Virus record (IMG/VR): IMGVR_UViG_3300027156_000002 | DNA length: 64,000 bases | Origin: a virus | Taxonomy: Duplodnaviria > Heunggongvirae > Uroviricota > Caudoviricetes | Reading direction: 5' to 3' (one strand) | Part shown: in pieces, positions 2,341 to 58,435 of the stretch | Numbering within the stretch: position 1 is the stretch's first letter | Layout: each line of letters begins with the position of its first letter | Program-made: the position numbers and the translations under genes | The notes under the pieces: model-generated | The model's input: only the letters and a program-made list of their open reading frames with translations | Database searches by the model: none | Told to the model about the DNA's origin: nothing

Positions 2341-2412
2341 ATAACAATTATACCCTACTTTTGAATTATTGTAAAGCATTATTTTTAATAACCCTGCAAA
2401 GTGTAGGGTTAT
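2341..2412 (-). promoter_or_regulatory. PeSL-like cassette 1: sigma70 early promoter (-35 TTTACA rc at 2370-2375, 17-nt spacer, -10 TATAAT rc at 2347-2352) plus upstream stem-loop (2389-2410, AACCCTGCA/TGTAGGGTT)
   Basis: Consensus hexamers are read directly on the minus strand with exact 17-nt spacing. The hairpin overlaps the stop of the upstream gene. The same architecture repeats 6 times in the window. Confidence 0.7.
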
Positions 2413-3206
2413 TTCAAGACCCATTGGATCATTTCCAAGCGAGTTAGAGCCGATGAATTCTCCCACATAGAGAAATGGGTAGACTGAGGGATAATTACTT
2501 CCTTGGAGTCTGGAAACAGTCCCTTAAAGGTATCATATCCACCTGTGGTAGACTCATAGTCATACTCACCGATAATACTTAGGATCGGTGGAACCTTTGC
2601 AGGATCGAACCCAAGTTGACCAGTATCAACCCAATAATTGTTGATATCATAAACAGGTTGCGATGGAACTTTCCATGTTGTAGAGCCAACAACATCAAGA
2701 ATCTTTTGTTCCCATCCGTCAATTCTATTTGGTTTGCCAATCAACTTGTCACTAATCTTTTCGAGTCTTTCTTTTTTAAGTTTCTCGATGCCAGTTTCAA
2801 AATATTCTGTGTCAAACTCAACATAATATCTTTTATCCATGCGAACAGATGGACTGTGAATGATAATCTTATCGAATAAACCTCTTTCTCCAGCAATCAA
2901 CGCAGGAGCAGTTGATGTTGAGAAACCAAATATAGTTTTGGAAACGTATTCTTTCTTAAGTTCTTTAATAGCAGATTCAATCTGATCTGCATATCCAACT
3001 CTGTCATACTGATAATAGTCAGTACTCTCACCATAACCACATGGATCAAATAAGATTACATCGATACCAGCACCAAGAAAATAGTCTATGTGCGTGTGAC
3101 CATCTGAAAGTTTAAAGTCCCAGAAAGCACGTGGCGATAAACTCTGTCCAGGTAAAAGGAATAGTAGATGTTTATTTTGTTCTAAACTAATTTCTGTTGT
3201 AACCAT
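2409..3206 (-). CDS. alpha/beta-hydrolase fold protein
   Basis: 265 aa. GFSTS nucleophile-elbow (GxSxG) motif with a hydrolase-like length. Confidence 0.55.
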   Translation of the reverse strand: MVTTEISLEQNKHLLFLLPGQSLSPRAFWDFKLSDGHTHIDYFLGAGIDVILFDPCGYGESTDYYQYDRVGYADQIESAIKELKKEYVSKTIFGFSTSTAPALIAGERGLFDKIIIHSPSVRMDKRYYVEFDTEYFETGIEKLKKERLEKISDKLIGKPNRIDGWEQKILDVVGSTTWKVPSQPVYDINNYWVDTGQLGFDPAKVPPILSIIGEYDYESTTGGYDTFKGLFPDSKEVIIPQSTHFSMWENSSALTRLEMIQWVLK

Positions 3207-3207
3207 A

Positions 3208-3807
3208 TCAATTGTCGTTTTGGATTTTACTAAAGTCTAAATTTTCATAACCACGTAGAACTGAGAATGGGTTCATTGCACCAATCCCAGCTGTGATTGC
3301 ACTTCTCTTTCCTGTTATACCAACAACATCATGTATAACTAGAGCATTAAGAATCCACCATCTGTGAGTATCAACATGAACAGATTTCACTAAATCAAGT
3401 TTATCTTTATTTTCTGGTTTAGTTAGATGTGGACGAATTAGAGGGTTTGATTTTTCTCTATAAAAATTAGTTGAAGGATTTTCTCCTCCCCTCTCATAAA
3501 CATAATTTAAAACCCATTTCCTTGGGAATGAATCTGTATGGGCTAGATGTGTATTAGAGCCACCAATATAATGTGATATCTGAATACTAGGTAAAAATAA
3601 CTTATCAGAGATGTTATTAACAATCCAGTCGTTTAATTCTTTACTAGCATTATTTCTAGTGTAAAGAATGTTTGGTATATCTCCAGAAGAAGATTTCATT
3701 GTTCTCATCTCTGCAGTATAGTTACGCTTGTCATTAATATCAACTTCTGTTGGTATTAAATGCTCTGGAACTTTAGGTAAATTATCTAAATATTTAAACA
3801 ATAGCAT
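3208..3807 (-). CDS. hypothetical protein (possible PhyH-like Fe(II)/2OG dioxygenase)
   Basis: 199 aa. HTD (HxD) followed later by HVDTH. This is a weak motif-level call only. Confidence 0.35.
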   Translation of the reverse strand: MLLFKYLDNLPKVPEHLIPTEVDINDKRNYTAEMRTMKSSSGDIPNILYTRNNASKELNDWIVNNISDKLFLPSIQISHYIGGSNTHLAHTDSFPRKWVLNYVYERGGENPSTNFYREKSNPLIRPHLTKPENKDKLDLVKSVHVDTHRWWILNALVIHDVVGITGKRSAITAGIGAMNPFSVLRGYENLDFSKIQNDN

Positions 3808-3810
3808 AAA

Positions 3811-4629
3811 TTATGTAATCCTCTGTTGTAGATATTGTAAGGTATCATTATCATTAAAATACTTACCCTCAAAACACTTCACTGTAATTATATTTCCAGC
3901 TGTTGATGTCAGAAACATTGCATCAGATGTTTCAGCAAACCATGGTAGGATATTACCATACTCAAACCAAATACCATTTCTATCGCATAAGGATTTAACT
4001 AATTCCATCACAGTACCCTTAAGACAGTTCGTGGCAGGTGCGTACACCTTTCCACCTCGAATAAACCCAACATTAAATCCTGGACCCTCAGTAATAAGTC
4101 CACCATGGTCTAATAACACAGCAGTATCATATCCACGATCGATTGCTTCCCACTGTGCAAGGTTTAAATCATTCCAAGCAAAGTTCTTCATCGTTTGATC
4201 AATAGATGTATTTCTTTTTTGCTTCGCTAAGCAAACTGTAGCTGTATTTTCTTTATTGAACCCATAGTAGGGTTTGGTATAGATGAAGAGATTCGGTTTA
4301 CAGTTGGCTAAATCTCTTGGGTTACCAGAAGTAGGTATACCTCTAGTCAAACCGATCCAAACTAATAGATCGTCAGTCGGTGCCATAGCTACCAATGTTT
4401 GAATAACTATCTCGATGTCGTTATCAGAGTACTCAACAGGGATTCTCCATCCCTGAGAACTGCGGATGAATCTACTCAGGTGTGCATTTAGGTTTTCAAT
4501 TTCACCATTCCTCACTGCAAGCACATCATAAGTTGCATCACAATGAATTAAGCCAAGATCTAAAACAGAAACTGTTAGGTCTTTGACTTTACAATACTTA
4601 CCATTTTTCCAAGCAGGATAATCAAGCAC
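3811..4629 (-). CDS. class IV PLP-dependent aminotransferase (branched-chain/D-amino acid aminotransferase or ADC lyase family)
   Basis: 272 aa. ITEGPGFNVGF-type motif (E-G-x-x-x-N-x-F) and an overall BCAT-like pattern. Confidence 0.65.
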   Translation of the reverse strand: MLDYPAWKNGKYCKVKDLTVSVLDLGLIHCDATYDVLAVRNGEIENLNAHLSRFIRSSQGWRIPVEYSDNDIEIVIQTLVAMAPTDDLLVWIGLTRGIPTSGNPRDLANCKPNLFIYTKPYYGFNKENTATVCLAKQKRNTSIDQTMKNFAWNDLNLAQWEAIDRGYDTAVLLDHGGLITEGPGFNVGFIRGGKVYAPATNCLKGTVMELVKSLCDRNGIWFEYGNILPWFAETSDAMFLTSTAGNIITVKCFEGKYFNDNDTLQYLQQRIT

Positions 4630-5251
4630 GAATAAACTCCATTATTTCTTTGGCTAGAATATATCTAGCTGGTTCTAACATTACGTAATGTGAAGAATTC
4701 TTTATAACAACCTTTTTCTTCTCACCCAAAAATTTTAAATACATTCCATTTGTGCATAGAGAATTATTAGAATTACCCCACTCACTAAACAACAATAATG
4801 TTTTAGTTTTGTTTGGTGAAATAATCAATCTATCGACCACTCCAATATTTTTATTTTTAGTGGATAAATCCCTCTCAAAAAACCTATTGGCAGTTTCTAT
4901 ATCCTCAATATACTTCTTCTGATTATGATTTATTTCTGCATTAGGATCAAGTAAAATTATCCCTTTGGTATTTTCTGTTGATGATGCTATAGCAAGAAAA
5001 CACCCAAAACTATAACCCATTATATAATCTACATCAGTAGCGAGTTCTTTCAAATCTTCCACTAAACTCTCATATGTATCGCTGGGTTCATAATCTACTG
5101 CGATAGTTTCAACTCCAGCATCATACAACAAATCTTGTAGGTTTTGTTCTGTGAATGTGGAGTTGAACATGGTGTCATATTTCCATGTGACACCCATGAG
5201 ATATAAAAGACTGTGCTTATGGTTGGGTGGTGTTTTTCTGTGTACCAGCAC
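4622..5251 (-). CDS. alpha/beta-hydrolase fold protein
   Basis: 209 aa. GYSFG (GxSxG) nucleophile elbow. Confidence 0.5.
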   Translation of the reverse strand: MLVHRKTPPNHKHSLLYLMGVTWKYDTMFNSTFTEQNLQDLLYDAGVETIAVDYEPSDTYESLVEDLKELATDVDYIMGYSFGCFLAIASSTENTKGIILLDPNAEINHNQKKYIEDIETANRFFERDLSTKNKNIGVVDRLIISPNKTKTLLLFSEWGNSNNSLCTNGMYLKFLGEKKKVVIKNSSHYVMLEPARYILAKEIMEFIRA

Positions 5252-5501: not shown

Positions 5502-5704
5502 TTATCCTTTTTAATTTCAATTGATTTTGAGAAGAAGATGTGCAACAAAACTGCTGCAGACCAAGTCTCTAATGTATAGGGGATTGCGAGCATAGGGAAT
5601 AAAGTGTTTAGTGCCCAGAGATATAAAATTGGCAGAAGAACTGCCAAACCAATAATAATGATGACACCAACAGTGACACCAAACATAGCAATAATTGTTT
5701 TCAC
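5498..5704 (-). CDS. small membrane protein (2 predicted TM)
   Basis: 68 aa, hydrophobic. Start overlaps the neighbouring gene. Confidence 0.4.
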   Translation of the reverse strand: MKTIIAMFGVTVGVIIIIGLAVLLPILYLWALNTLFPMLAIPYTLETWSAAVLLHIFFSKSIEIKKDK

Positions 5705-7778: not shown

Positions 7779-7805
7779 TTTTGTTTCCTTTTTCAATCAT
7801 CATAA

Positions 7806-7918
7806 GACTATTATACAGCCATTTTGAATTATTGTAAACCCCCAGTTTTGCAAATTTACAACGCAAAAACCCCTCTACTAGAGAGGGGTTGGGAAGACCC
7901 TACAGTTTGTAGGGTTAT
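7806..7918 (-). promoter_or_regulatory. PeSL-like cassette 2: promoter (-35 rc 7833-7838 GTTTACA, -10 rc 7810-7815 TATAAT) plus two tandem stem-loops (7866-7886 CCCCTCT/AGAGGGG and 7898-7916 CCCTACA/TGTAGGG)
   Basis: Read directly from the sequence. Same architecture as the other 5 cassettes. Confidence 0.7.
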
Positions 7919-8017
7919 TTTGAAGTTAAATTTGAGGGTTTGCAGGCTGTATCAACGCTACCACCTGCTAGACGATATGGAAGAAACCATATTTGTAGAA
8001 AATACCAAACCCAAAGA

Positions 8018-8248
8018 TCAATTGGATTTATCATTGTCTTTTCTTGCGAATTTTTCAGAAGCTGTGAATCCCAGTCCTGCTATCACAAGATAAATCATTG
8101 AATCGAATAAAGCTGGCGTTACCTTATACCCTTGGATGTCAGCAACGAACCCATAAGCACATAACAAAAACGCTAATAGTGTTACAACTCGTTTGCTGCT
8201 GACAGTTCCATTATGGCCATCAGATACCATGCTTCTTAACCAATTCAT
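8018..8248 (-). CDS. small membrane protein
   Basis: 76 aa, two hydrophobic segments. Confidence 0.4.
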   Translation of the reverse strand: MNWLRSMVSDGHNGTVSSKRVVTLLAFLLCAYGFVADIQGYKVTPALFDSMIYLVIAGLGFTASEKFARKDNDKSN

Positions 8249-18580: not shown

Positions 18581-19596
18581 GTACTAAATTTTAATTTTGC
18601 TTCAACACCTGAAAAGGTATTCGTATTTATCAATTGAACAATTTCGTCAGTAGTCATTTTACCATCTAAAATCATTTCATTGATATCTTTTTGCATTACG
18701 GTGTCGGGGAACATACAAACATTATAGCCTAAACTAATATATTTGTCAAGTTGTTTCACTATGTCTTTATTACGTGGCTCATTATCCATTACAATCGTTG
18801 CGTTAGTAAGTAGCTGCCGAATAGTAGGGGTATCAAAACTTGCTCCTGACACAGCGATTGCATTTGGTAAGAATAGCGAATCAATTGGTCCTTCAACAAC
18901 ATATATGCGTTTGCTATAATCCAAGCGATCGAGTCCATAAATTTTCTCCTGCGTTTCATCTACTTTAATTGTATAATACTTAGGCTCTTCTTTACCAAAT
19001 GCTCTGGCTTGATATGCAAAACATTTACCAGCAGCAGTGAAGTAAGGAATGATAAGTCTTGGGTGCTCATCTACTATTGGCTCTTGAAATTTTGGCGTAA
19101 CGGTATTGGTATATGCTTTAAATTTTGGAGCAAAGTAGAGTAAGTTCCGTTTATCCTTTGGTATCTGTCGGTTGTTTATATATTGAAGAACTGGATGACC
19201 ATCTGGTAATTTATCGATGCGTGTAAGACTCTCGAGGATATCATCCTCAAGTAAATCTTCTTGTGGAGTTTCTAAGACGACACTGGTATCAGCAATGTCT
19301 TTGTGGTCATTATATCTTGTAGCACCACCTTTGTAGCGTTCCAAGACATACTCATCATAAAGTTTTGTATCGACATACTTGATTAAGTTGCCGAGATTGG
19401 TTCCATATCCGCAGTTGTGACACTTACAGAATAAATCTGATTTTGCACGATAGATGTATCCACGTGCTTTAAGTTTGTTTGTGGTACTATCACCACAGAC
19501 TGGACAGGAATAATTCCAAAGGTAATCTTTTTTCTGTTTGAAATTTCTTAGACGTGATCCAAGAATACTTGCAAACTTAACATCAATGTATAACAT
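18565..19596 (-). CDS. 61: DNA primase (T4 gp61-like)
   Basis: 343 aa. N-terminal zinc finger CPVC...CHNC and a C-terminal toprim-like region. Positioned as in T4, where 41-61 are co-transcribed. Confidence 0.8.
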   Translation of the reverse strand: MLYIDVKFASILGSRLRNFKQKKDYLWNYSCPVCGDSTTNKLKARGYIYRAKSDLFCKCHNCGYGTNLGNLIKYVDTKLYDEYVLERYKGGATRYNDHKDIADTSVVLETPQEDLLEDDILESLTRIDKLPDGHPVLQYINNRQIPKDKRNLLYFAPKFKAYTNTVTPKFQEPIVDEHPRLIIPYFTAAGKCFAYQARAFGKEEPKYYTIKVDETQEKIYGLDRLDYSKRIYVVEGPIDSLFLPNAIAVSGASFDTPTIRQLLTNATIVMDNEPRNKDIVKQLDKYISLGYNVCMFPDTVMQKDINEMILDGKMTTDEIVQLINTNTFSGVEAKLKFSTWRKI

Positions 19597-31035: not shown

Positions 31036-31049
31036 TTTACCCATCTATA

Positions 31050-31120
31050 CAGTTATTATACCCTACTTTTACAATAAAGTAAAGCATTATTTTAGTAACC
31101 CTACGTTCTGAAGGGTTATT
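31050..31120 (-). promoter_or_regulatory. PeSL-like cassette 3: promoter (-35 rc 31078-31083 TTTACT, -10 rc 31055-31060 TATAAT) plus stem-loop 31098-31118
   Basis: Read directly. Sits immediately upstream of the capsid-targeting-sequence gene cluster. Confidence 0.65.
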
Positions 31121-31152
31121 TTAATCCATTGAAAACAATGACTTACAGAGGT

Positions 31153-31160
31153 ATTTATAA
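31153..31160 (-). promoter_or_regulatory. T4-type late promoter core TATAAATA (minus strand)
   Basis: Plus-strand TATTTATA at 31153-31160 is the only exact occurrence found in the window. It lies upstream of PeSL-3 and the internal-protein block. Confidence 0.4.
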
Positions 31161-36902: not shown

Positions 36903-37191
36903 CTGTGTACGTTAAATTATTATTCGCAATACCTTCATGAATAAGATCTTGAAGGATATCACCTATGTATTTCTCAAAGGGTTTCATGTCAGTGATAACC
37001 TTATCGTTGTAGTCAAGAATCTCATATTCAAAACTAATCTTCAAGGAATCGTTGGCTTCATCTTCTTCGAAACCAACTTTACCATAAGAATAAATTATAC
37101 CTTCATATGCACCATCTGTCAACTTTATCGCATCATGTCCATTACTGCGATTTTGCACAGTAACATAATTGCGCATATTATTCTTCATCAT
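36850..37191 (-). CDS. hypothetical protein at the T4 gene-40 position (between uvsX and 41)
   Basis: About 112-124 aa. Start ambiguous (several Met). Overlaps the 41 start by about 50 nt. Confidence 0.35.
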   Translation of the reverse strand: MMKNNMRNYVTVQNRSNGHDAIKLTDGAYEGIIYSYGKVGFEEDEANDSLKISFEYEILDYNDKVITDMKPFEKYIGDILQDLIHEGIANNNLTYTGGVDENRTGDPIEPDSQ

Positions 37192-38894: not shown

Positions 38895-41334
38895 TCGGCT
38901 GGATTACAGTTTGCATTGCATCGAGGAATGTCTTTTCAAACTGTGTTTCATAATCAATAAAGTCATGCAAACCAAACTCTTTCGGTAGATTTTGCGGGAA
39001 TGCGATAACGTCTTCCTGGAATGGATTTGGTTTTCTCACATATACAAACTTAACCTTCTCACCCTCTTTAATCAACTGATACTTCTTTTCAAGTCCAAGT
39101 TTCTTGACATAATGATTGTAAAGTAGTGAACCCCTTACATGGATAGGTGTTCCCTTGGTATAGATCGGAGAACCAGCATATGTTCTCAAACCATTTACGC
39201 CACGTGGGAAAGCAATATCCTCTACTGGCATTTGGTTGAATTCTTCACGGAACTTTTCGATATACGAGTGTAAGTCCGCTTGACTGCCCTTGAGAATAAC
39301 TTCGATCGAATCTTTAAGTTTGTCACGAATAACAGCAGGTGTACTTGACTTGACCATTTCAAGCCCCATAACTTTGAGTTTCGGTTTAGCATACTGCACT
39401 CCTTCAGAATTGTGTACGTTCAATATGTATCTTTTCTTGGCAGTCCAGATACCCTTATCGGCAAGAACCTCACGTTTCATAATCATCTTCTGAGAGTATG
39501 CGTTCATATACTCACCCAACTTTTGATACGTTTGGTCAATGAATGGTTGGAAGATCTCTTCGCAAACCTTATCCATATATTTAATTTTCTGGTCGTCAGT
39601 TTTACCTTCGCAAACTTTCTCGATCAGTTCTTCCAATGTTAGATAGATTGAATCTGTGTCAATGGCGATAACAAAGTCTTTACCTTCTGTCTTCATGACC
39701 TTGTTGAGATAACGATTAAACTCATTTGCCATCCAACGAATCGATAGTTGACCACTGGTAGTAATACCTTCTGCCATGCGAATATCAAAGTAACGGAAAT
39801 ACTGATTACCCATCGCACCATAAGCAGAGTTGAGAGCAATCTTCATTGCCATCTGCAGGTTGTTCAGTCGACTAATCTCTTTCAGTAGTTCTTTCTTGGA
39901 CTTGTCGTTCTGATATTCCTGTTCAACTTTCAGCATCTGCTTCTTGAACTTACTGCGGTCTGAATACATCTTCTCCATCAACTCAGGCATGAACCCTTTG
40001 ATATCTCTGCGGTAAGTCCAGCCATTGGCAGTCAACGCAAGATCCCTACGCTTACAATATTCAGTATCAACTTCTTGATTGAGCAGACGTTCAACGTTGC
40101 ATGAGATCTTCTCACCACTCAATGTTTCTGGTGAGATGTTATACTGCATAATCAAGTGAGGATATAGACTGTTCAAGTCAAAAGAAGCAACCCACTTATG
40201 CATACCCAGCAATGGGTCTTTAACGAAAGCACCTTCAAATGCTTCATTCTTACTGGAACCAACCTTGGTAGGAATGGCGATATGTTTCTTACGCAGGTGA
40301 TTATAGATGATGGCGTCCCACATTCTTACCTGAGAGAATACATCTTCATAGTTAATCTTTGCATTGTATGCCATGGTAAGACACAACTCAATCAGTCGCA
40401 TCTTATCTTCAAGTTTGTCAACCAACTCTACGTCGTGAATGTTATACTCAACGAAGTCTTGCCAGTAATTTGTATAGAAGTCTTTAAATGTATCTCCAGG
40501 GTTTTCTTTCTTGGCATCACCAAGTTCTTCACCTGCGATATAATCTAGACGATAGGACTCTTGCTTTTGATAAGTGAACTTCTTATACAAGTCAAGATAG
40601 TCAAGTTGGCTTACACCATGGATGTCAAATGAAATTTCTTCGTTACCTTTAACAAAGATCTTTCGTTCATTGATATATCCCCATGGTGAAAGTTTGGCTG
40701 CGATTGCTTCGCCAAGTTCACGCTGAATACGTTTAGTCAAATATGGTACGTCAAAGAATCCAATGTTCCATCCAGTTAGAACATCAGGATAATTCTGTTG
40801 CCAGAAAATCATAAACTCTTTGAGAAGTTGTTGCTCGTCTTTGCAACGGAAGTAAGTAACATCCTTGCGAGTATTTTCAAACTCACGTGTGCCGAAAGTG
40901 ATAATACTCTTAGATTGAAAGTCTTTGATTGTGATTAGTAAGATCTCTTCATTCGCCTGTTTGACATCAGGGAATCCATCTTCAACTGCAGTTTCAATGT
41001 CGATGGTGAACACTTTAATTTGTTCCATATCCCAACGAACATCACTCTCATAAGTGTCGCTGATATATTGGTGAACATAGTTAGTGTTTCCGTAGACGTT
41101 GAAACCCTGCACTTCTTTGTAACGATCAAAGAACTCACGTGTTTCTTTTACAGTTCCAGGTTTAACTTCATCGATAACTTGACCATCGAGTGTGCGCCAC
41201 TGGCTCTCTGCTTTATTTGATGTTACATAAAGTGTTGGGTAAAAGTCGATCTTACGTTGAAACGCTCTGCCGTTTTCATAACCTCTGACACACATTTTGT
41301 TACCAAAGGGAAATACGTGCGTATAAAAAATCAT
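38845..41334 (-). CDS. 43: family B DNA polymerase (T4 gp43)
   Basis: 829 aa. DTDS (IAIDTDSIY) and KIALNSAYGAMG motifs. The N-terminus YISDTY resembles T4 gp43. Confidence 0.9.
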   Translation of the reverse strand: MIFYTHVFPFGNKMCVRGYENGRAFQRKIDFYPTLYVTSNKAESQWRTLDGQVIDEVKPGTVKETREFFDRYKEVQGFNVYGNTNYVHQYISDTYESDVRWDMEQIKVFTIDIETAVEDGFPDVKQANEEILLITIKDFQSKSIITFGTREFENTRKDVTYFRCKDEQQLLKEFMIFWQQNYPDVLTGWNIGFFDVPYLTKRIQRELGEAIAAKLSPWGYINERKIFVKGNEEISFDIHGVSQLDYLDLYKKFTYQKQESYRLDYIAGEELGDAKKENPGDTFKDFYTNYWQDFVEYNIHDVELVDKLEDKMRLIELCLTMAYNAKINYEDVFSQVRMWDAIIYNHLRKKHIAIPTKVGSSKNEAFEGAFVKDPLLGMHKWVASFDLNSLYPHLIMQYNISPETLSGEKISCNVERLLNQEVDTEYCKRRDLALTANGWTYRRDIKGFMPELMEKMYSDRSKFKKQMLKVEQEYQNDKSKKELLKEISRLNNLQMAMKIALNSAYGAMGNQYFRYFDIRMAEGITTSGQLSIRWMANEFNRYLNKVMKTEGKDFVIAIDTDSIYLTLEELIEKVCEGKTDDQKIKYMDKVCEEIFQPFIDQTYQKLGEYMNAYSQKMIMKREVLADKGIWTAKKRYILNVHNSEGVQYAKPKLKVMGLEMVKSSTPAVIRDKLKDSIEVILKGSQADLHSYIEKFREEFNQMPVEDIAFPRGVNGLRTYAGSPIYTKGTPIHVRGSLLYNHYVKKLGLEKKYQLIKEGEKVKFVYVRKPNPFQEDVIAFPQNLPKEFGLHDFIDYETQFEKTFLDAMQTVIQPIGWNVEAKSSLEDFFG

Positions 41335-41645
41335 ATTTTGTTTGCTAATCTTAAAATTTTAACTTGATCATTGGGTGCAAGATATGCTCTTACAGTTAAG
41401 CATCGTCTCATTGTAATTGGATCATCGTAGTAAGTAAACTCAACCAGTCTATTCTCGAGCATATGTTTTATCATATCTCGAGTTAGTTTTTCTTTCACCT
41501 GCATGATTGCTGTTTCATCACCATCTTGTAATAGAGTTGAAAACGATTCATCCATCTCTGCTTTACCCACTACCATCTTACCACCGATGGCATAGTCGTG
41601 CGAATGAAATATTGGTACGTTTAATATTTTGATTTTATTTACCAT
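41331..41645 (-). CDS. hypothetical protein
   Basis: The track ORF overlaps the exonuclease gene. A shorter start at MVNKIK is likely. Confidence 0.35.
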   Translation of the reverse strand: MVNKIKILNVPIFHSHDYAIGGKMVVGKAEMDESFSTLLQDGDETAIMQVKEKLTRDMIKHMLENRLVEFTYYDDPITMRRCLTVRAYLAPNDQVKILRLANKI

Positions 41646-42201
41646 ACATAAGTTGCATAGCATCCAATGCACAATCATGTACTGGATGATGTTTGATTAC
41701 ACTGTGTCGTTTAAATGTTGGGTGATTGACTTCACAATAACCATTCGTGGAACCAGTAAAACAATCAACAGCAGTTCTCACGTCCCTCCACATATTATAC
41801 GTGGTAATCGGATTAATGTCAAGTTTAACGCACAAACTATCTATTGCAACTTGGTCAAGAGAACCACGTGCCCACATAGTTTGCTTACTTGCGTTAGGAT
41901 ACTTCGCCATATAATCTTTTAGAATTTTAATCGCATCTTCTGCAATTAAATCATCTGGACTTGCATCAAAAGAAACCTTGCGAACATATTCGTGTTGATT
42001 CTTCCACCAATCAATTGTGTCTTTTGAAATGGTGCGACCAAGTCTTTCAACTTGGTCTTTTGATTTTAACTTAACGAAACATGCATCGTCAAGAAGTTTC
42101 TGATAGTCAGGTTGTTCCTCTGGATCGAAATAAATTAAACCTGCAGATAAAATCACGCAGGTTGATTCGATACCCAAAGTTTCTACATCAAATACAAACA
42201 T
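41635..42201 (-). CDS. DnaQ-like 3'-5' exonuclease (DEDDh; dexA-like)
   Basis: 188 aa. FDVETLG (Exo I) and HHPVHDCALDA (Exo III with His). Confidence 0.65.
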   Translation of the reverse strand: MFVFDVETLGIESTCVILSAGLIYFDPEEQPDYQKLLDDACFVKLKSKDQVERLGRTISKDTIDWWKNQHEYVRKVSFDASPDDLIAEDAIKILKDYMAKYPNASKQTMWARGSLDQVAIDSLCVKLDINPITTYNMWRDVRTAVDCFTGSTNGYCEVNHPTFKRHSVIKHHPVHDCALDAMQLMYGK

Positions 42202-44118: not shown

Positions 44119-45410
44119 TTAATCACCTTGCTGGTATCTGCAACAGTTTTATCATCACGAAGTTCAATAAACACTGGAAGGAACAAACTATCCTCACCTT
44201 GTTTATTCTTTATTCTCATATTATACTTGATAGCTACAATTTTGTCAACTAAATTTTCTTTCCAATAATTCTTGCGATGTTCCTCAGTAAAGCCAGAGCC
44301 AACATTAACTTTTACAACACCATCGGCAGATTCGCAAACAATCGCACCAAGCATTCCTGCAGCTTTACCCTTACCCTCTTCCACTGCAACAATCTTCAAG
44401 TCGCACTCGAGTTCGCCTTTGAATTTAATCTGAGTCTTGCTACGTTTATCTTCCCAGATACCTTTGCGACATTTCAGGATGATACCTTCTTGGCCATCAG
44501 CAAGCAATTTCTCGAACAACGTATTTGCTTCTTCGATAGCATCAACTTCCCAGCTATCAACAAGACCAACTTTCTTTGGCTGATATGTATCCAGCATTAC
44601 ACAAAGAGAATCAAATCGTTGTCCGTAAGGAACAAGACATTCACCTTTAGTAAACGCATCATACGGAATCAAATCCCATACTGTGGCATGAACCTTGCGT
44701 GCTTCATCAGTTTTGATAGTACCCTTGTTGGCTTTATTCAAAATACCATTACCAGTCTGACGATCTAGGATGATACCTTTATCTTTGACGAGCAACTCGC
44801 CATCAAACACGCAATCTTGTCCGTTAGCCATGACAATGAAATCTTCTTCGAGATTACCCAACAAGTCAATCTCTTTACCATTGCGTGAACGAAACTCACA
44901 CTTACCAGAACGAACGATAGCATTGAATCGCATACCATCCATTTTAGTTTGCACGAAAGCAGGGAATTTAATTTTATCAACCAGCTTCTGTTCGAATGGT
45001 GAACAGAGCATAACAGGATATTCAAAAATCAAATTCTTCCATACCTTGTTTGCTGTTGACACATCAACACCACACTTCAAGTCTTTAGCGATGATACGCT
45101 CAAGTACTTTAGCATCGTCTGCGTTTAGTGCTTCAAGATTCGCACGCAGATGGTCGATACCAGCATTACCAGTGACCAATCGTTTAGTCAAATCACCGAT
45201 TGAATCCATGGCAAACTTGAGAGAGATTCCATCACCAGTATTTGGTGTATACTCAGGAATCTTACGGATGTAAAACTGAGTGAACGGGTCGAGAGTCTTG
45301 CGAACAACCTCACGTAGCACTTCGTTATCGCTATGTGCGTTTAGTTGCTCGATCTTGAAGTTGCGTGAGTTATTACTCGCAAGACTCTCGAAAAACTTAT
45401 TCAGATTCAT
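44115..45410 (-). CDS. 30: ATP-dependent DNA ligase (T4 gp30-like)
   Basis: 431 aa. Motif I KMDGMR, DGELL and an OB domain. Confidence 0.85.
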   Translation of the reverse strand: MNLNKFFESLASNNSRNFKIEQLNAHSDNEVLREVVRKTLDPFTQFYIRKIPEYTPNTGDGISLKFAMDSIGDLTKRLVTGNAGIDHLRANLEALNADDAKVLERIIAKDLKCGVDVSTANKVWKNLIFEYPVMLCSPFEQKLVDKIKFPAFVQTKMDGMRFNAIVRSGKCEFRSRNGKEIDLLGNLEEDFIVMANGQDCVFDGELLVKDKGIILDRQTGNGILNKANKGTIKTDEARKVHATVWDLIPYDAFTKGECLVPYGQRFDSLCVMLDTYQPKKVGLVDSWEVDAIEEANTLFEKLLADGQEGIILKCRKGIWEDKRSKTQIKFKGELECDLKIVAVEEGKGKAAGMLGAIVCESADGVVKVNVGSGFTEEHRKNYWKENLVDKIVAIKYNMRIKNKQGEDSLFLPVFIELRDDKTVADTSKVIK

Positions 45411-46641: not shown

Positions 46642-46669
46642 AATCAGGTTTCCTTTTTCATTCATCATA

Positions 46670-46840
46670 AGACTATTATACACCAAACCTGAATTATTGT
46701 AAAGTATTTTTTTTGGATAACCCTTTGGGTTGTAGGGGATTGTAACTCCTTGATTTTACTGGAGTTTTTATGTGTGTCGACCCTCTATCAGAGAGGGTCT
46801 TGGGCTGTAAATACCCCTACAGAACGTAGGGTTTTATTTG
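46670..46840 (-). promoter_or_regulatory. PeSL-like cassette 4: promoter (-35 rc 46698-46703 TTTACA, -10 rc 46675-46680 TATAAT) plus three stem-loops (46719-46731, 46778-46799, 46814-46833)
   Basis: Read directly. The last hairpin, CCCTACAGAACGTAGGG, is identical to the PeSL-6 hairpin. Confidence 0.7.
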
Positions 46841-47317: not shown

Positions 47318-47562
47318 AGAAATTATTTAGGGAATCCGAAGATTCCCTAGTTTCTATGATTTAACTGGTTGTGGCGTTTTACCGTTTACCCAATCCCAAT
47401 CTTCATCGGTCATGGGAATCCAATTGTTTACTTGCATTTCCCATACTCCTGCATCAACTTAGTTGCTCGCTCACGATTACCATTGCGAGCAGCATCTGCA
47501 GCAGCACGAGCATAGCCAATTCCCTTTAAAACAACATAGACATGTCGGAAAAATGATTTCAT

Positions 47563-48274: not shown

Positions 48275-48662
48275 ATTGTTCTCCTTTTCAGCGAGTTTAA
48301 AATTGCTACCCCGAAGGCATAGCGTTAATGCTGGTTACTGGTTCCAGCGACAGCTTAACGTACTGACAGCTTTACCAACGATTCGTAACTTAGCGGTCCT
48401 AAGGTGAATTCTTGGTAGTGTTTTACATGGTTACTACCACCATGTCCCATCCCGAGGGATGCGTACTTGCATGGGTAAATCTATTTAGGCAGCAGGAAGT
48501 TCTGTAGCAGCAGCTTCTTGTTGCTTAATAATTTCTTCTACCTGTGGTTCACCCTGTTGCTTGATTTTGCTGATTAGGGTTACAACTTCCTCAAATGGAT
48601 GTTTACCAAGTACACGCAGAATCAAATTGCATTCGTCAACTGTTAGTTCAAGTTTAATCATG

Positions 48663-52159: not shown

Positions 52160-52951
52160 TTATTTTCCAATCATCAAACCAGTCATATTGCTTGGAACAA
52201 CAATAGTCTGAACCTTGCCATTCTTAATACCTTCAGAGATATTCAATGCAGCTTGAGCATTCATAAACGCAATGGAACTCGCAGAGTTATTTGCAAGAGC
52301 AGCCATCCGCTCAGCTTCTTTACGAGCAGTCTGTACTTCTACTTCTTTCTGTTTGAATTCATTCTTTGCACGAACCAATTCATTGGCAGATGCTACAACC
52401 GAATCAGCAGGAACGATGTTACGAATAAGAACCTGTCCGATAATTAGACTTCCATCAAGTTTCTCATCAGCAAGACTCTTTTGAATCTGCTCTCTGATTG
52501 CTTGTTCCATTGCTTGACGATTGTCCGCCATATCCAGTGCTTCGTACTTACGTGCTTCTTTGTAAATAGCATTACGTGCAGTTTGAACAATGTAATTATA
52601 CATCAGGTAAATATCGCCATTGTGTTTAGCGTGGAATGCTTGACTCTTTTGACTATAGAGTTCAGCAACTTGTGCTTGATTAATGTTATAGATAACCACA
52701 GCATCAAAGTCTTTCATAGTGCTGTTGTCTTTGGCAACAGGGGTCATGTCGTCAAGTTTAACATTAACATCTTTGATAGGGAATGTAAGAACATCACCGA
52801 TCAACACTTGATTAAAAGATCCAGGAAGCAACTCTCCTTGCTGGACTTGCTTGTCAAATCCAACACGAACACCGACTTCACCTGTTTCAATACGAGTGCA
52901 ACCAGTGGCAAAAACAGCCAGCATGGCAATAGCAAGAACACTTTTCTTCAT
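52160..52951 (-). CDS. SPFH/band-7 (prohibitin/stomatin-like) lipoprotein
   Basis: Start re-assigned to MKKSV (AGGAA SD). Lipobox ATGC followed by SPFH-domain and coiled-coil features. Confidence 0.6.
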   Translation of the reverse strand: MKKSVLAIAMLAVFATGCTRIETGEVGVRVGFDKQVQQGELLPGSFNQVLIGDVLTFPIKDVNVKLDDMTPVAKDNSTMKDFDAVVIYNINQAQVAELYSQKSQAFHAKHNGDIYLMYNYIVQTARNAIYKEARKYEALDMADNRQAMEQAIREQIQKSLADEKLDGSLIIGQVLIRNIVPADSVVASANELVRAKNEFKQKEVEVQTARKEAERMAALANNSASSIAFMNAQAALNISEGIKNGKVQTIVVPSNMTGLMIGK

Positions 52952-52962
52952 AATAATTTCCT

Positions 52963-53138
52963 TAAAATAAAACAACGATACCGACCAAAAATAAACCAGT
53001 CAGAACTGCACACACTAAACTGTATGATAAAAGTTTAGAAACATGCCACTTCTGTTTACCAGTCAACGCACAAAATGCTTGAATGCCAAAATAAAAGATA
53101 GCAAAAATAATAGCGAATGATGTAACGATCTTCATCAT
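52963..53138 (-). CDS. small 2-TM membrane protein (58 aa), not in ORF track
   Basis: Hand-translated MMKIVTSFAIIFAIFYFGIQAFCALTGKQKWHVSKLLSYSLVCAVLTGLFLVGIVVLF. The ATGA overlap with the upstream stop means it is translationally coupled and sits immediately 5' of the SPFH gene. Confidence 0.35.
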
Positions 53139-53866: not shown

Positions 53867-53952
53867 TATATAATATCTCCATAATAAACAGCCATCAAAA
53901 AAAAGATCGGGAGAAGTGATGGCATTCCCTCTCCCGACTAGAAAATAGAAGA

Positions 53953-54408: not shown

Positions 54409-54463
54409 AGTTAATAATCAACTACAATAACAATTCTACCTTAAACCTGATTATTTGTCAAGT

Positions 54464-55636
54464 TTAAAATGGGATTTCCTGAGCAGGTTCTTGCACAACA
54501 GGTGCTTCCACTGCTACAGGTTCTGGTTGCGGGTTTGCAACTTTATCATACAGGTCAATAAATGCAGCTTTCGTTGCAGCATCAAAACGATTGCAACAAA
54601 GTTGGACTGCTTTCTCCCTGTTCTTGAAGATTGCAAATGCACGAACGATATGGATCATACGACGAGTCGTAATTGTTTCATCCACACCACCATCCTCGAA
54701 AGTGCGACGGATAGCATCAGCCCACTTTACAAGGGTCTCTGCAAACTCTTCGTCAATACACGAATAAGTTTCCATGAGATTCTTGATAATCTTAATCTCA
54801 ACTTTTGCAGCTGGGTATTCCTGTTCAAACGTAACAGCGAATCGCTCCAAGAATGCTTCGTTCAATACGTTGGTACCGATATAACGACCATCGTCACTAC
54901 CCTTACCCTTAGTGTTCGCAGTTGCAATAACATTGAATCCAGGAGCAGGAACAATCATCTCATTCTTGAGTTTGAAATAGTAAGGTTTACCCTCGAGAAT
55001 CGGTTGCAAGCACAACAGAGTGTTGGCAGAGCCAGCATCAATTTCGTCAAGCAACAGAGTAGTACCAGTACGCATAGCGATTAGAACTGGTCCTTCAACA
55101 ATTTCTACGTTACCATTCTCCAATGTTTTGGAGCCGATAAGTTGTTCTTCGTCAGTCATCATGTTTAGGTTAACACGAATGAGTGGCTTTTTGTATTTCG
55201 CACAGATCTGCTCAACCATGGTAGACTTACCGTTACCAGTTGGACCAGAAATATATGCAGGGTAGAAAATACCAGACTTGATAATAACTTCCAAGTCGGA
55301 GTAGCTACCGAAAGGGACGAAGTTTGAATCCTTCTTAGGAATCAATGATGCAGTGTTTGTGTAATCAACCACGAAAGACTCTACAGGTTCAGATTTAGTT
55401 TTTACCACAGTATTTCCAACTACAACAGTAGAAGGTTTACCACCATTAATTGAATATAAACCACGACCAACAACATCTTGCATTAGCCACAATGGGTGGT
55501 AGTCGATTTTGTTTTTGGCACGAACTTCCAGCAATTGCTTGCGTGTAACTGTACCAGTAGTTTTTGTATCAGGGAACATCTCAAAGAGTTTATCTTCGAA
55601 GAATGCTTTTTGTTGCTCAGTAATTTTTGCCATCAC
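54464..55636 (-). CDS. MoxR/CbbQ-type AAA+ ATPase (CobS-like)
   Basis: 390 aa. Walker A GPTGNGKST and Walker B LLLDEIDAG. Paired with the vWA protein upstream. Confidence 0.7.
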   Translation of the reverse strand: MMAKITEQQKAFFEDKLFEMFPDTKTTGTVTRKQLLEVRAKNKIDYHPLWLMQDVVGRGLYSINGGKPSTVVVGNTVVKTKSEPVESFVVDYTNTASLIPKKDSNFVPFGSYSDLEVIIKSGIFYPAYISGPTGNGKSTMVEQICAKYKKPLIRVNLNMMTDEEQLIGSKTLENGNVEIVEGPVLIAMRTGTTLLLDEIDAGSANTLLCLQPILEGKPYYFKLKNEMIVPAPGFNVIATANTKGKGSDDGRYIGTNVLNEAFLERFAVTFEQEYPAAKVEIKIIKNLMETYSCIDEEFAETLVKWADAIRRTFEDGGVDETITTRRMIHIVRAFAIFKNREKAVQLCCNRFDAATKAAFIDLYDKVANPQPEPVAVEAPVVQEPAQEIPF

Positions 55637-55663
55637 TCACTCACTTTCATAATAAAAAATTCA

Positions 55664-55810
55664 AACACTAGACCAAATTTCAAGAACCCCACCATCAGGA
55701 TAATCAGCAGGTAACACAACAGACCGAAGGTAATCATAAGCCAGACCGAAATTAGCGAAACCTTCAGAAACAACAATTTTATTCACAGTATCAATAACAA
55801 AGAACTTCAT
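55664..55810 (-). CDS. small ORF (49 aa) immediately downstream of PeSL-5 promoter, not in track
   Basis: AAAGGA SD plus ATG at 55808-55810 (MKFFVIDTVNKIVVSEGF...). Confidence 0.3.
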
Positions 55811-55833
55811 AACAATCCTTTCACTCTATACAA

Positions 55834-55921
55834 TAATTATACGTCTTTTTTGAATTATTGTAAAGCAATATTTTCACCCTCTATTCCAGAGGGTTTGCAA
55901 TCCCCTACAATCCGTAGGGTT
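55834..55921 (-). promoter_or_regulatory. PeSL-like cassette 5: promoter (-35 rc 55859-55864 TTTACA, -10 rc 55836-55841 TATAAT) plus two stem-loops (55876-55894, 55903-55921)
   Basis: Read directly. Confidence 0.7.
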
Positions 55922-58145
55922 ATGCAACATAGCCAATAAAGTTATTCAGAAGGACTCGGCTAGTCTTCTTGACATTCAAAAACTTACCAAAGTTTCTTGC
56001 GATCGCCTTTGCATTCGCATCTGCTTTCACATCCAACTCACCCTCTTGAATTCTTGTAGAAGATTGGGGAATCAGGAACAAGTCATCACGACCAGTATTC
56101 TTGATTGATGCAAATCCTTTGACACGGAAATCTTTTCTCCATTCTTCGATTAACATAGCATCGCTACCTCTATACTCGGGTAGATTTGCTTGCATTGCAC
56201 CACGCAAGTCACGACGATGATTCTGACAGATATGAAAGCCCAGTACTGAAATGTTGTAACGATCTTTCATCATTTGCAGAATAGTTTTCGATTGATGGTT
56301 ACCATACTTATTAAACTCATAAGTCTTTTGAGTAATTTCATCACGGATATAATGTTTCTGTTTGATACGTTTGTATTCAGCACCAACAATTTCAGTTCGC
56401 ACATCATCCAAACCACGATGATATCCAACAGGAGCCAAAGAATGACCTTCGCCATCGGTAAGAGTAATGAACGTCATCTTCTCGATATTGTTGTTTTTAA
56501 CAAACGAACCAACGTTATTGTAGCACCATACCAATGCTTCGTTAAGTGGAGTGCCACTGGTTTCATATCCTTTGTTCCACTGAAATTTCCAATGCAACAA
56601 ACGACGTGCCATTGAATTGAATTCGCTGGTAGTCATTTTGTTACTGAACAATTCAAGAAGATTGAAACAATTATTGGCAGCACCGATTAATTTTTCGGTT
56701 TCAGCTTTAGCACGTTTCGCTGTTTCAAATTCACGCTCATATGTATATCGTTGTGAACGTGCTTCGTCAGAAGTACAAGCATTCTCACGAACGTAATCAT
56801 AGTACGCAGATGTAAAAGCATAAACACGATAAGGAATCTGAACACGATTGCAGAACATAGCCAAATTAACAACCTGCTTAATTGTATCTTGCAAAACTTC
56901 ATTCATAGAACCAGACCAGTCAACCAGCATAATCATACCATGGTTTTTACCCTCTGGTATAGTGGTCACACGTTTAAAGATATCGTCTTTGAGTTTGTAT
57001 GCATAAACTTTCTTCATATCCAATGAACCGATCTTGGATACTTGAGCACGTTTATACATAGTTGCACTCTTGCGCATCTCGAATTCTTTGACCAAATAGT
57101 TTACTGCACGACTGGAGTCAATCTTAAATTGTTCGAAGTCTTTCTTCTCGGCAAGTTCTTTCTTTGTCAAATAATCTGGCTCAGCATAACGTGTGTATCT
57201 TTCTGCACGACCATCTGTATCATCTAGCCACTGCTCTGGAGATTTTGTTTCAGAAAGAATCTTTTTAAATGGAACAACAACTTCATCCATATAATCAGTA
57301 TCAAACTTCCAGTAGTTATACTCAGTGGTATCGTCAGCGAGATCGCTTAGTTTACTGGAAAAAATACGTTCAGTTTTAGACTCAAGATCTTCATCATCAT
57401 TATTGTTTGCTTGTTCGTCAGTTTCTTTGGACTTTGTGCTCTTGACAGTTTTTTCAATCTCTTCCATATCGTCAAGTTCTTCTTCGTCAAAGTCTTCGTC
57501 ATAATCGATGTCAAAGTCAGATTCAATCGGATCTTCTTCGTCTTCATCGTTTGATTGCAAACCCAATTCCTGCATTTGTTTCTTGCGCTCTTCCAGTTGT
57601 TTTCTGGAGAATGCGTATACATCATTGGCTAGTGTGATAACATCGTCAATAGTTTCGGTGCGTTCAGCACGTTCAACAAAAATCTTTTCTTCAGATGTAA
57701 ATTTTACACCACAAAATACACCTGCTTTAAAGTAGAGATTAATTTTGTCGATAAGGTTCAATTCAGCGAATGATTGAATCTGACCAACACCAAAAAAGTC
57801 ACGATCGTTGAGTTGTTTGTAGCCATCACTCATACGCTTACGTAGACCTGGATATTTACGTTTGATTAGTTTCTCGATACGCACGTCTTCGATGACGTTT
57901 AGATAACTACGAATCTTTGGGTTATCTTCGATCGGTTTCATATATGCGTCAGTCGTGTATAGCGCATGACCAACTTCATGACCGATCAACATATCTTCAA
58001 TTTCGGGGGACATTTCTTTCCACATAGGAAGAGTCAATACACGACTCTTAATATCGAAAGATGCAGTGCGAGTTCTTGCACGAACAACAGAAAGATTTTC
58101 TGTAGCAAGAAGTCTTGCGGATAGATCAGATGCTTTCATTTCCAT
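55920..58145 (-). CDS. von Willebrand factor A (MIDAS) protein with N-terminal HExxH motif (CobT-like partner of the MoxR ATPase)
   Basis: 741 aa. HEVGH near the N-terminus. An acidic low-complexity middle region. vWA motif LVDWSGSM. Confidence 0.6.
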   Translation of the reverse strand: MEMKASDLSARLLATENLSVVRARTRTASFDIKSRVLTLPMWKEMSPEIEDMLIGHEVGHALYTTDAYMKPIEDNPKIRSYLNVIEDVRIEKLIKRKYPGLRKRMSDGYKQLNDRDFFGVGQIQSFAELNLIDKINLYFKAGVFCGVKFTSEEKIFVERAERTETIDDVITLANDVYAFSRKQLEERKKQMQELGLQSNDEDEEDPIESDFDIDYDEDFDEEELDDMEEIEKTVKSTKSKETDEQANNNDDEDLESKTERIFSSKLSDLADDTTEYNYWKFDTDYMDEVVVPFKKILSETKSPEQWLDDTDGRAERYTRYAEPDYLTKKELAEKKDFEQFKIDSSRAVNYLVKEFEMRKSATMYKRAQVSKIGSLDMKKVYAYKLKDDIFKRVTTIPEGKNHGMIMLVDWSGSMNEVLQDTIKQVVNLAMFCNRVQIPYRVYAFTSAYYDYVRENACTSDEARSQRYTYEREFETAKRAKAETEKLIGAANNCFNLLELFSNKMTTSEFNSMARRLLHWKFQWNKGYETSGTPLNEALVWCYNNVGSFVKNNNIEKMTFITLTDGEGHSLAPVGYHRGLDDVRTEIVGAEYKRIKQKHYIRDEITQKTYEFNKYGNHQSKTILQMMKDRYNISVLGFHICQNHRRDLRGAMQANLPEYRGSDAMLIEEWRKDFRVKGFASIKNTGRDDLFLIPQSSTRIQEGELDVKADANAKAIARNFGKFLNVKKTSRVLLNNFIGYVA

Positions 58146-58151
58146 AATATA

Positions 58152-58325
58152 TTATTCTCCAAATGCCATATCAAATTCAAACTCAGTCAATGCTTGCTCA
58201 ACCACATCACGATTTGCCAACTTTATCGGTAGGATGTGTTCAAACTCACACACATTACCAATATCATACTTGTGGCAAAGACTTGCCAATTCAAAGTCAT
58301 CAAAACTACTCCACTGGTTTTGCAT
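58152..58325 (-). CDS. hypothetical small protein
   Basis: GGAGA SD before the 2nd ATG (MQNQW...). Confidence 0.35.
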   Translation of the reverse strand: MQNQWSSFDDFELASLCHKYDIGNVCEFEHILPIKLANRDVVEQALTEFEFDMAFGE

Positions 58326-58346
58326 AATTTTCTCCATTCTATAGTA

Positions 58347-58435
58347 GAATTATGCCCGAGTTTTGATTATTTGTAAAGCACTATCGTAAGTCGTTGATTT
58401 TATTGGAAAAAATAACCCTACAGAACGTAGGGTTT
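58347..58435 (-). promoter_or_regulatory. PeSL-like cassette 6: promoter (-35 rc 58372-58377 TTTACA, -10 rc 58349-58354 CATAAT) plus stem-loop 58413-58433
   Basis: Read directly. One mismatch in the -10. Confidence 0.6.

Follow-up and report, generated by a model that had tools for sequence, protein, structure and literature searches.

A 64,000-nucleotide (nt) stretch of a tailed-phage genome, IMG/VR record IMGVR_UViG_3300027156_000002 (called the window in the following), contains six intergenic sites at which a G/C-rich hairpin is followed by a sigma70-like promoter. The question raised by this locus is whether these sites belong to the Promoter early Stem-Loop (PeSL) cassettes known from T4-type phages, which have been proposed to mediate the shuffling of gene modules, or whether they are regulatory signals that are alike for other reasons. 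Each site is probably a PeSL-type composite junction between two early or pre-replicative units, at which non-allelic recombination occasionally moves modules, and a probability of roughly 65% is given to this interpretation. The original prediction had read the sites as PeSLs, and this reading holds in so far as their anatomy fits the published definition and examples of exchange are found in relatives, but not as regards a mobile unit, an excess of breakpoints or insulation against antisense transcription.

Anatomy of the six sites

All six sites are present at the predicted positions on the minus strand, which also carries all long open reading frames (ORFs) of the window, and the coordinates given here refer to this strand unless the other is named. 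The six copies lie in 64 kb, within a replication-gene region and among accessory genes, the rest of the genome being outside the window; PeSLs are characterized by many similar copies with a preference for hyperplastic regions. The order at each site is the stop codon of the upstream gene, a hairpin of subtype A, a second hairpin of subtype B (sites 2, 4 and 5), an A-rich stretch, the promoter, a leader, and a Shine-Dalgarno site and ATG, the last two of which are found at all six sites. The A-rich tract and promoter are ~15-110 nt downstream of the hairpin. Hairpin A abuts the stop codon at five of the six sites, a count that includes site 2 because the stop of a previously missed ORF of 39 amino acids (aa) abuts the hairpin there.

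At site 1, hairpin A1 (AACCCTAC-acttt-GCAGGGTT, 2390-2410, with one A.C mismatch and a score of 26.0 bits) overlaps the TAA stop (2411-2409) of a 265-aa alpha/beta-hydrolase gene, and the promoter TTTACA-N17-TATAAT (2347-2375) is followed by a leader, a GAGG Shine-Dalgarno site and the ATG, at 2318, of a conserved 366-aa gene (phrog_11903). Site 2 has hairpins A2 (7916-7896) and B2 (7890-7868), a promoter TTTACA-N17-TATAAT (7838-7810) and the leader AGTCTTATGATGATTGAAAAAGGAAAC, followed by the ATG of ORF90 at 7779. The 39-aa ORF upstream of it (MINPIDLWVWYFLQIWFLPYRLAGGSVDTACKPSNLTSK, 7915-8034), whose TAA stop (7917-7915) overlaps hairpin A2, is hydrophobic, conserved and unannotated, and its frame is kept in the relative L360, including an in-frame 3-nt indel. 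Immediately upstream of this ORF, an extra 141-aa gene is found in L360, L362, L366 and L368.

Hairpin A3 of site 3 (31117-31097), which has one U.U mismatch and no U-tract, and the promoter TTTACT-N17-TATAAT (31083-31055) precede the ATG, at 31044, of a 400-aa DUF6267 gene. Site 4 extends from the TAA stop of a 92-aa gene (46836-46834) through hairpins A4 (46833-46813) and B4 (46799-46779), the promoter (46703-46675) and the leader AGTCTTATGATGAATGAAAAAGGAAAC to the ATG of ORF84 (46641-46639). At site 5, the TAA stop of a 741-aa gene (phrog_459) together with hairpins A5 (55921-55901) and B5 (55895-55875) occupies 55875-55922, and the promoter (55864-55836) leads to a 49-aa ORFan (55810-55661), which has no homolog in 80 relatives and is missing from the closest of them, L001. 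Site 6 comprises the TAA stop of the gp46 homolog with hairpin A6 (58414-58437), the promoter TTTACA-N17-CATAAT (58377-58349) and a 57-aa ORF, orf57 (58325-58152), which is present, missing or relocated depending on the relative. The Shine-Dalgarno sequence AAAGGAAAC with a small ORF, which several of the sites had been said to carry, is thus confined to sites 2 and 4, whereas sites 5 and 6 have other Shine-Dalgarno sequences before ORFs of 49 and 57 aa, and the genes that follow sites 1 and 3 are of 366 and 400 aa.

Exchange of modules in relatives

The evidence for exchange comes chiefly from sites 2 and 4. From the -35 to the Shine-Dalgarno sequence the two sites agree in 50 of 56 nt, their 27-nt leaders differing at a single position, and the ORFs that follow are unrelated; paralogy of ORF84 and ORF90 as the cause of the shared leader was rejected, the two giving no alignment at E <= 100. 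In the window, ORF84 stays at site 4 and ORF90 is 39 kb away at site 2. In seven independent contigs, ORF90 instead precedes ORF84 directly at the site 4 locus, in the order [hairpins + promoter]-ORF90-18 nt-ORF84-...-ligase. In the site 4 leader of the window, the leader of ORF90 seems to be combined with the Shine-Dalgarno region of ORF84 into a hybrid, as recombination between two similar Shine-Dalgarno regions would be expected to produce. In the PeSLs studied by Arbiol et al. (PMC2839356), the crossovers of mini-circles were mapped in the Shine-Dalgarno/leader zone. A gene module that has moved between cassettes 39 kb apart would extend the generality of regulatory cassettes as linkers in modular exchange.

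Other endpoints of rearrangement also fall inside the cassettes. Homology to four relatives from different samples (L360, L361, L362 and L368) ends at 2385, in the part of site 1 that separates the hairpin from the -35, and these relatives have a different upstream gene and no hairpin at this position. L364 is without four accessory genes (5254 to 2414), among them an aminotransferase and two hydrolases, up to the start of hairpin A1, and carries a homologous hairpin directly after the stop of a 94-aa gene. The gap left in L001, the closest relative at site 5, by the missing 49-aa ORFan has its left edge 17 nt after the -10, and in L030 a homolog of orf57 is located between the 741-aa gene and cobS, flanked by two near-identical promoter copies.

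These findings bear on the alternative that the sites consist of ordinary independent signals, a 3' hairpin and an early promoter, that resemble each other by the functional consensus of the clade and have no special role in shuffling. The near-identity of sites 2 and 4 before unrelated ORFs goes far beyond what a consensus would need, and the presence of ORF90 at the other site in seven relatives and of several breakpoints within a few nucleotides of cassette sub-elements likewise argues against ordinary signals. This alternative, which has its own support in the promoters and conserved junctions described below, is considered rather unlikely, yet it is the most probable of the alternatives.

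For PeSL-type composite junctions, the following course of events can be proposed. The hairpin at or within the upstream stop codon would most likely form in the mRNA and serve as a 3'-end attenuator, terminator or stabiliser, being efficient probably only where a U-tract follows (A6 and B2). The strong sigma70-type promoter would be used by unmodified host RNA polymerase immediately after infection, and transcription would restart into the next gene. Because the copies share 20-56 nt of near-identical sequence, phage recombination could act on non-allelic copies, and the phage system encoded in the window (UvsX and gp46/47) may occasionally recombine such copies or similar leaders. Exchange of this kind would delete, insert or relocate promoter-plus-gene modules without disturbing the expression of the neighbours. 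The promoter and terminator activities and their early timing are predictions from the sequence, and recombination, rather than selection alone, is the presumed cause of the similarity of the copies.

The hairpin family

Nine hairpins at the six sites belong to one family, (A)ACCCT-NN-loop5-NN-AGGGT(T), in which subtype A, (A)ACCCTAC-N5-GTAGGG(TT), is represented at all six sites and subtype B, ACCC(C)TCT-N5-AGAGGG(G)T, at sites 2, 4 and 5. Their predicted folding energies (dG) are -8 to -14 kcal/mol (-8.8 for A1), and a covariance model built from the nine finds only these nine above 25 bits in the whole 64 kb. The two identical hairpins noticed earlier were confirmed, CCCTACAGAACGTAGGG occurring exactly on the plus strand at 46815-46831 and 58416-58432, as was the inverted core at site 3, where a copy with one mismatch lies on the opposite strand at 31099-31115; in all, this hairpin word has 7 matches where 0.02 are expected. 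From one to three hairpins per site had been counted, of which the A and B hairpins stand, and the third hairpin of site 4 (ACTCC...GGAGT) belongs to the box motif that is discussed below as resembling a binding site of integration host factor (IHF).

Covariation was examined in a sense-strand alignment of 39 hairpins (36 distinct) from the window and from relatives anchored on gp46. In the 36 distinct hairpins, 92.7% of the cells are paired, and 19 cells, belonging to four of the eight pairs, show compensatory double changes, such as AC/GT, CT/AG and GT/AC in the two pairs next to the loop. The covariation score was reached by none of 500 shuffles, and pairing falls to 22-54% when the register is slid. 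G.U departures, as counted from the alignment, favour the sense strand by 5 to 2, a bias that tends to favour a hairpin in RNA.

The stem core CCCT/AGGG is kept and the 5-nt loop varies freely, and this pattern is a point in favour of another explanation, in which the palindrome and the IHF-like box are putative protein sites on double-stranded DNA, recognized by IHF or a phage factor that bends the DNA or targets recombination. The invariance of the core is partly circular, however, as the matches were chosen with a model built from it, and junctions in relatives that were not selected with the model also carry other stems. The compensatory changes and the sense-biased G.U pairs, too, point to an RNA hairpin rather than a DNA site. 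Protein sites on DNA are thus regarded as an improbable account of the palindrome, and the remaining evidence on them is given with the box.

Contrary to the original prediction, which placed the U-tracts of the hairpins on the plus strand as a hint of insulation against antisense transcription, sense-strand tails are found at A6 (ATTTTTT) and B2 (TTTGCGTT), both of which score as canonical terminators. Antisense insulation is weakly founded and unlikely, because few promoters lie on the plus strand, whose T-runs are complementary to the A-rich context of the stop codon (AAATAA).

In relatives (L002, L003, L005, L008, L021, L033 and L348), strings of the TAAGTAAGTAA type are often located just after gene stops; they contain stops in all three frames and form A/T-rich GTAAGT...ACTTAC hairpins ahead of the G/C-rich hairpin.

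The promoters

The exact 17-nt spacer that had been claimed for the promoters is present at all six sites, in the form TTTAC(A/T)-N17-(T/C)ATAAT, with TATAAT as the -10 at five sites and CATAAT at site 6. Their near-identity, also claimed, extends to four or five of the six. The promoter word TGCTTTACAATAATTCAAAA has exact copies at 2359-2378 and 55848-55867 and copies with 2 and 3 mismatches at 7822-7841 and 58361-58380, respectively, which makes 4 matches where 0.02 are expected by chance; the sequence at site 4 is TTTACAATAATTCAGG, and site 3, with TTTACT and a different spacer, does not conform.

The six promoters are a subset of the near-consensus sigma70 promoters of the window, which number ~17 on the minus strand versus one on the plus strand. 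The spacer motif (A)ATAAT(T/C)CA and the G before the -10 are common also to the hairpin-less promoters at 54461, 38294 and 60681. In the clade, represented by 318 anchored loci, 722 distinct strong N17 promoters lie on the sense strand and 108 on the antisense strand, and their extended consensus is an A-rich tract followed by TTGACt-Tt.At....G-TATAAT. A CCCTnn..nnAGGG hairpin is located at most 110 nt upstream of 119 of the 722 strong promoters and of 4 of 722 random windows, and the hairpin-promoter composite is therefore a recurrent but minority arrangement of the early promoters of this clade. The occurrence of the spacer motif in hairpin-less promoters and in the clade consensus favours ordinary signals over related cassettes, as does the fact that T4 early promoters also carry consensus regions beyond the sigma70 elements.

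A reading of TGCTT in TGCTTTACA as a MotA box was rejected, because the motif is at the -35 position, with 19 nt from the end of TGCTTTA to the -10, and a middle promoter would place the MotA box at about -30 and not at -35.

Perfect or near-perfect TTGACA-N17-TATAAT promoters are also found inside coding sequences, at 60653-60681, 44220-44248, 41794-41822, 37094-37122 and 18721-18749, among them the gp47 homolog and the 3' end of the ligase gene, and presumably drive the next gene. At sites 2 and 4 (7799-7803 and 46664-46668), an in-frame AUGAUG, located 7 nt after the -10, coincides with the start of the predicted transcript or is close to it, so that leaderless, N-terminally extended forms of ORF90 and ORF84 are conceivable beside those that begin at the Shine-Dalgarno-led start.

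The IHF-like box and the late promoter at site 3

In many relatives, a 22-nt box, CCCTkTAAAATCAAyrACTTAC, adjoins hairpins and early promoters in either orientation. The box combines an A/T-rich 5' flank with a match to WATCAANNNNTTR, the IHF consensus of Escherichia coli. It is present at three of the six sites of the window: at site 6 (TCCAATAAAATCAACGACTTAC, 58386-58407) and at site 4 (TCCAGTAAAATCAAGGAGTTAC, containing AATCAAGGAGTTA, 46742-46763) it fits WATCAANNNNTTR exactly, and at site 3 a degenerate copy in reverse orientation (GTAAGTCATTGTTTTCAATGG, 31126-31146) has one mismatch to it. With up to 2 mismatches, 107 copies are found in 4.2 Mb of relatives (for example in L004, L013, L281, L391 and L414). 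The generic box core occurs 54 times in 722 promoter-upstream windows versus 7 times in shuffled and 13 times in random ones, a 4-7-fold enrichment. In some loci, the box forms the loop of a CCCTGTAA/TTACAGGG stem.

The orientation of the core is evenly split (27:27), which suggests a site that is read on double-stranded DNA and would not be expected of an RNA element. This split and the enrichment upstream of promoters are points for protein sites on DNA, and the authors of the PeSL work also speculated on a DNA-binding protein for their stem-loops; the restriction of the box to half of the sites in the window counts against such an explanation. It is accordingly doubtful, and proposed here with much reserve, that the cassettes are three-part modules of a stop-codon hairpin, a 22-nt putative IHF-type box and an extended early promoter, in which host IHF or a protein of the phage binds the box and the palindrome, sets the architecture of the promoter and targets recombination. 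If true, this would amount to protein-assisted PeSL shuffling, which went no further than speculation in the original work, in an abundant and uncultured clade of T4-like phages.

Site 3 differs from the other sites in its promoter context. The window contains a single T4-type late-promoter motif, TATAAATA (31152-31159), located between the cassette and the stop codon upstream of it. In most distant relatives (L206-L272), the DUF6267 gene has TATAAATA and a conserved hairpin in its 5' untranslated region (GCAACCAAAGTGTGTTGC) instead of a sigma70 promoter, and in some other relatives no promoter precedes it. The promoter class of this gene therefore differs among relatives, and site 3 looks like an early-promoter module that was added behind a late promoter.

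Conserved junctions and the frequency of breakpoints

The gene order gp47-gp46-[X]-p741-[Y]-cobS, in which p741 is the gene of the 741-aa protein and X and Y are variable intervals, is kept in ~60 loci. Interval Y, from p741 to cobS, almost always contains a hairpin and a sigma70-like promoter. Interval X, from gp46 to the next gene, usually contains both, and its content ranges from ~60 nt to ~6 kb of extra genes. The junction before the 366-aa gene, corresponding to site 1, has a hairpin and a promoter in most relatives; five or more different genes occur as its upstream neighbour, and a promoter is missing there in ~20 loci. Between the window and close relatives, identity is 91-95% in the cassettes at sites 2, 3, 4 and 6 and 70-91% in the flanking coding DNA.

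Because the same junctions keep these elements across phages of 50-80% protein identity, the elements are likely to be largely orthologous regulatory signals, and their persistence at orthologous junctions in distant relatives is a further argument for ordinary signals. So is their behaviour when junctions change, for the two elements separate in relatives, the hairpin going with the gene upstream of it and the promoter with the one downstream. Behaviour of this kind is not that of six copies of a single, self-contained mobile element. Since the hairpin and the promoter each follow their own gene, the cassette is better seen as two adjoining gene-end signals than as a mobile unit.

A number of results weigh against PeSL-type junctions with a part in gene exchange. 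At the DNA level, 4 of 6 cassette junctions were broken as compared with 48 of 77 others (Fisher p = 0.60), in a test that is noisy, as blastn alignments fragment at most gene boundaries in divergent relatives. In a gene-order test on 355 loci (Mann-Whitney on loss of adjacency), adjacency was lost at the cassette junctions in 0.64-1.00 of relatives versus a median of 0.77 at 79 other junctions (p = 0.20), and versus a median of 0.73 at the 15 other junctions with gaps of >=40 nt (p = 0.22). Most indels between close relatives fall at junctions without a cassette, and the region as a whole is mosaic. The lack of a statistical excess of breakpoints is what would be expected of ordinary signals. 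The likeness of the promoters, too, need not mean common descent of the cassettes, because hairpin-less promoters and the clade consensus carry the same spacer.

As regards the hairpins, the seven other than A6 and B2 are followed by only 1-3 T in the 9 nt after the stem. The presence of a sense-strand U-tract at two of the nine, together with a canonical terminator elsewhere in the window, makes efficient termination doubtful at most sites. This other terminator (~53890-53931) is a textbook intrinsic one, CGGGAGA...TCTCCCG followed by T8, after a 145-aa gene. At site 3, a probable late promoter lies upstream of the hairpin, and strong termination there would work against it. Finally, the most striking recombinant, L363 (IMGVR_UViG_3300032305_000463, ~600-720), combines the 3' end of the 741-aa gene, with the site 5 hairpins, and the site 1 promoter, with the 366-aa gene. 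This contig may represent a rearrangement over 54 kb, or a chimera that arose in assembly where the promoter sequence is shared, and is not used as key evidence; no second contig with the junction was found in IMG/VR, nor a match in the metagenome collection.

Two expectations concerning rearrangement are thereby only partly upheld. The position of the sites at boundaries between conserved and accessory genes is correct descriptively for about five of the six and does not distinguish them from other junctions, and some endpoints of synteny do lie inside cassettes, without any enrichment of the motif at breakpoints in either test. As the cassettes are not rearranged more than other junctions, their role in exchange may be permissive rather than driving.

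Relation to known elements

The cassettes share with the PeSLs of coliphages RB49 and phi1 (Arbiol 2010, PMC2839356), the only ones for which promoter and terminator/attenuator activity was shown, by lacZ fusions, and in which mini-circles between cassettes were reported, an A/T-rich tract, a stem-loop rich in G/C, a Shine-Dalgarno sequence and a sigma70 promoter that is close to the consensus and has a spacer of 17 nt. In both cases there are multiple similar copies per genome, small flanking ORFs of unknown function, and endpoints of rearrangement in the interval from stem-loop to -35 or between the -10 and the ATG. The stem is different, being ACCCT-NN/NN-AGGGT here and polyG/polyC in RB49 and phi1, and the stem-loop is always upstream of the -35, starting from the stop codon, whereas in RB49 and phi1 it is most commonly between the -35 and -10 or overlaps the -10. 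The density is also lower, with six cassettes in 64 kb of a replication-gene region; furthermore, no statistical excess of breakpoints is seen here, and the activities of the cassettes are predicted from their sequence.

The PeSLs of T4/PST and KVP40/nt-1 (Comeau, Arbiol and Krisch 2014, PMC4122927) are similar to those of the window in that the stem-loop is just upstream of the promoter, the stem-loop consensus is specific to the group, and cassettes are near indels and ORF swaps between related phages. The -35 TTTACW is shared with T4/PST, and the promoters without a hairpin in relatives of the L360 type recall the 'half' cassettes of that work. The phage studied here, unlike T4/PST and KVP40/nt-1, belongs to an uncultured clade whose nearest cultured phages are cyanomyoviruses, and its cassettes differ by the additional, orientation-independent IHF-like box and by the position of site 3 behind a late-promoter motif. 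The documented PeSLs all come from three groups of cultured T4-type phages, which infect enterobacteria and vibrios, and in cyanophage S-PM2 PeSLs were judged unlikely to explain the acquisition of genes. A PeSL architecture, as predicted here, is thus new for this uncultured T4-like clade related to cyanomyoviruses. Early transcription units in metagenomic T4-like genomes can be annotated with the help of the stop-codon hairpin, the IHF-like box and the extended consensus of the promoter.

Like intrinsic terminators, the hairpins follow directly on a gene and consist of a short loop on a G/C-rich stem of 6-9 bp, with a U-rich tail at A6 and B2, and they differ from such terminators by the absence of a sense-strand U-tract at seven of nine. 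A comparison with repetitive extragenic palindromes (REPs) and the bacterial interspersed mosaic elements (BIMEs) composed of them is relevant to a further explanation, namely that the hairpins are selfish repeats similar to REPs, BIMEs or miniature inverted-repeat transposable elements, which were spread in the phage or borrowed from its host. The hairpins are short extragenic palindromes just downstream of coding regions that probably form in RNA, they contain the tetranucleotide GTAG, and the adjoining IHF-like site recalls REPs, some of which are reported to be linked to IHF recruitment (PMC3479197).

The GTAG of a REP (GTAG/CGTC) is a free tag, unpaired at one end of the element, whereas here it belongs to the stem, where it makes up the part of the 3' arm next to the loop and is paired with CTAC. 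The hairpins are abundant in none of the bacterial genomes scanned, which gave scattered singletons in unrelated phyla, the chance level for 16 specified bases in 596 Gb, and a host REP origin, or a clue to the host from the hairpin, was therefore rejected. They are phage-borne and conserved in position, with copies at orthologous places in relatives, and no transposase, REP-associated tyrosine transposase (RAYT) or homing-endonuclease domain was found in the flanking or variable window genes examined. Selfish repeats are thus largely refuted and appear very improbable. On these comparisons, the cassettes are best classified as distinct from REP and BIME elements, and most of the hairpins as distinct from canonical intrinsic terminators. 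Homing endonucleases and transposases were also rejected as drivers of the indels, because the variable genes are without such domains.

The phage and other features of the window

Profile searches of the window genes identified a T4-type replication and recombination region with gp47, gp46, the 741-aa protein, a CobS-like ATPase (cobS), the clamp, the clamp loader and RegA, as well as DNA ligase, gp43, UvsX, gp41, gp61 and NrdAB, among which small ORFs and accessory genes are interspersed. The best cultured matches of gp43 are cyanomyoviruses and marine single-cell viruses, at 55-57% identity, and uncultured relatives in IMG/VR number in the hundreds. Megablast against GenBank phages gave no close relative at the DNA level and only short matches to regA and the clamp loader. 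By its genes, the phage is placed in an uncultured T4-like clade. Rfam at the gathering threshold gave no hits in the window, and ARAGORN no tRNA genes.

The accessory block upstream of site 1 (2409-5197) consists of four genes, encoding an alpha/beta-hydrolase-like protein, a class IV aminotransferase, an unknown 199-aa protein and an alpha/beta-hydrolase. The block is missing from most relatives, in which a 94-aa or 62-aa gene directly precedes the 366-aa gene, and L359, L365 and L366 are without the 199-aa gene (3208-3807) only. Two insertions that are specific to the window relative to close relatives, neither at a hairpin A cassette, are a 115-aa ORF directly upstream of gp43 (41331-41678), which is missing in L279, L281, L284 and L285, and a 58-aa ORF with a 263-aa SPFH/Band-7 gene (52160-53138), both missing in L001.

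Downstream of regA and a 58-aa ORF, a 210-nt intergenic gap (48275-48484) is more G+C-rich and folds into several hairpins, with a minimum free energy of -58.7 kcal/mol (z = -2.3 versus shuffles) and no Rfam match; this gap may represent a structured RNA. A UUCG-tetraloop hairpin, TAGGGAATC-TTCG-GATTCCCTA, is located at 47328-47349 and has no promoter after it, and at the same junction L285 and L286 carry a 655-nt insertion of two ORFs (3564-4220 in L285).

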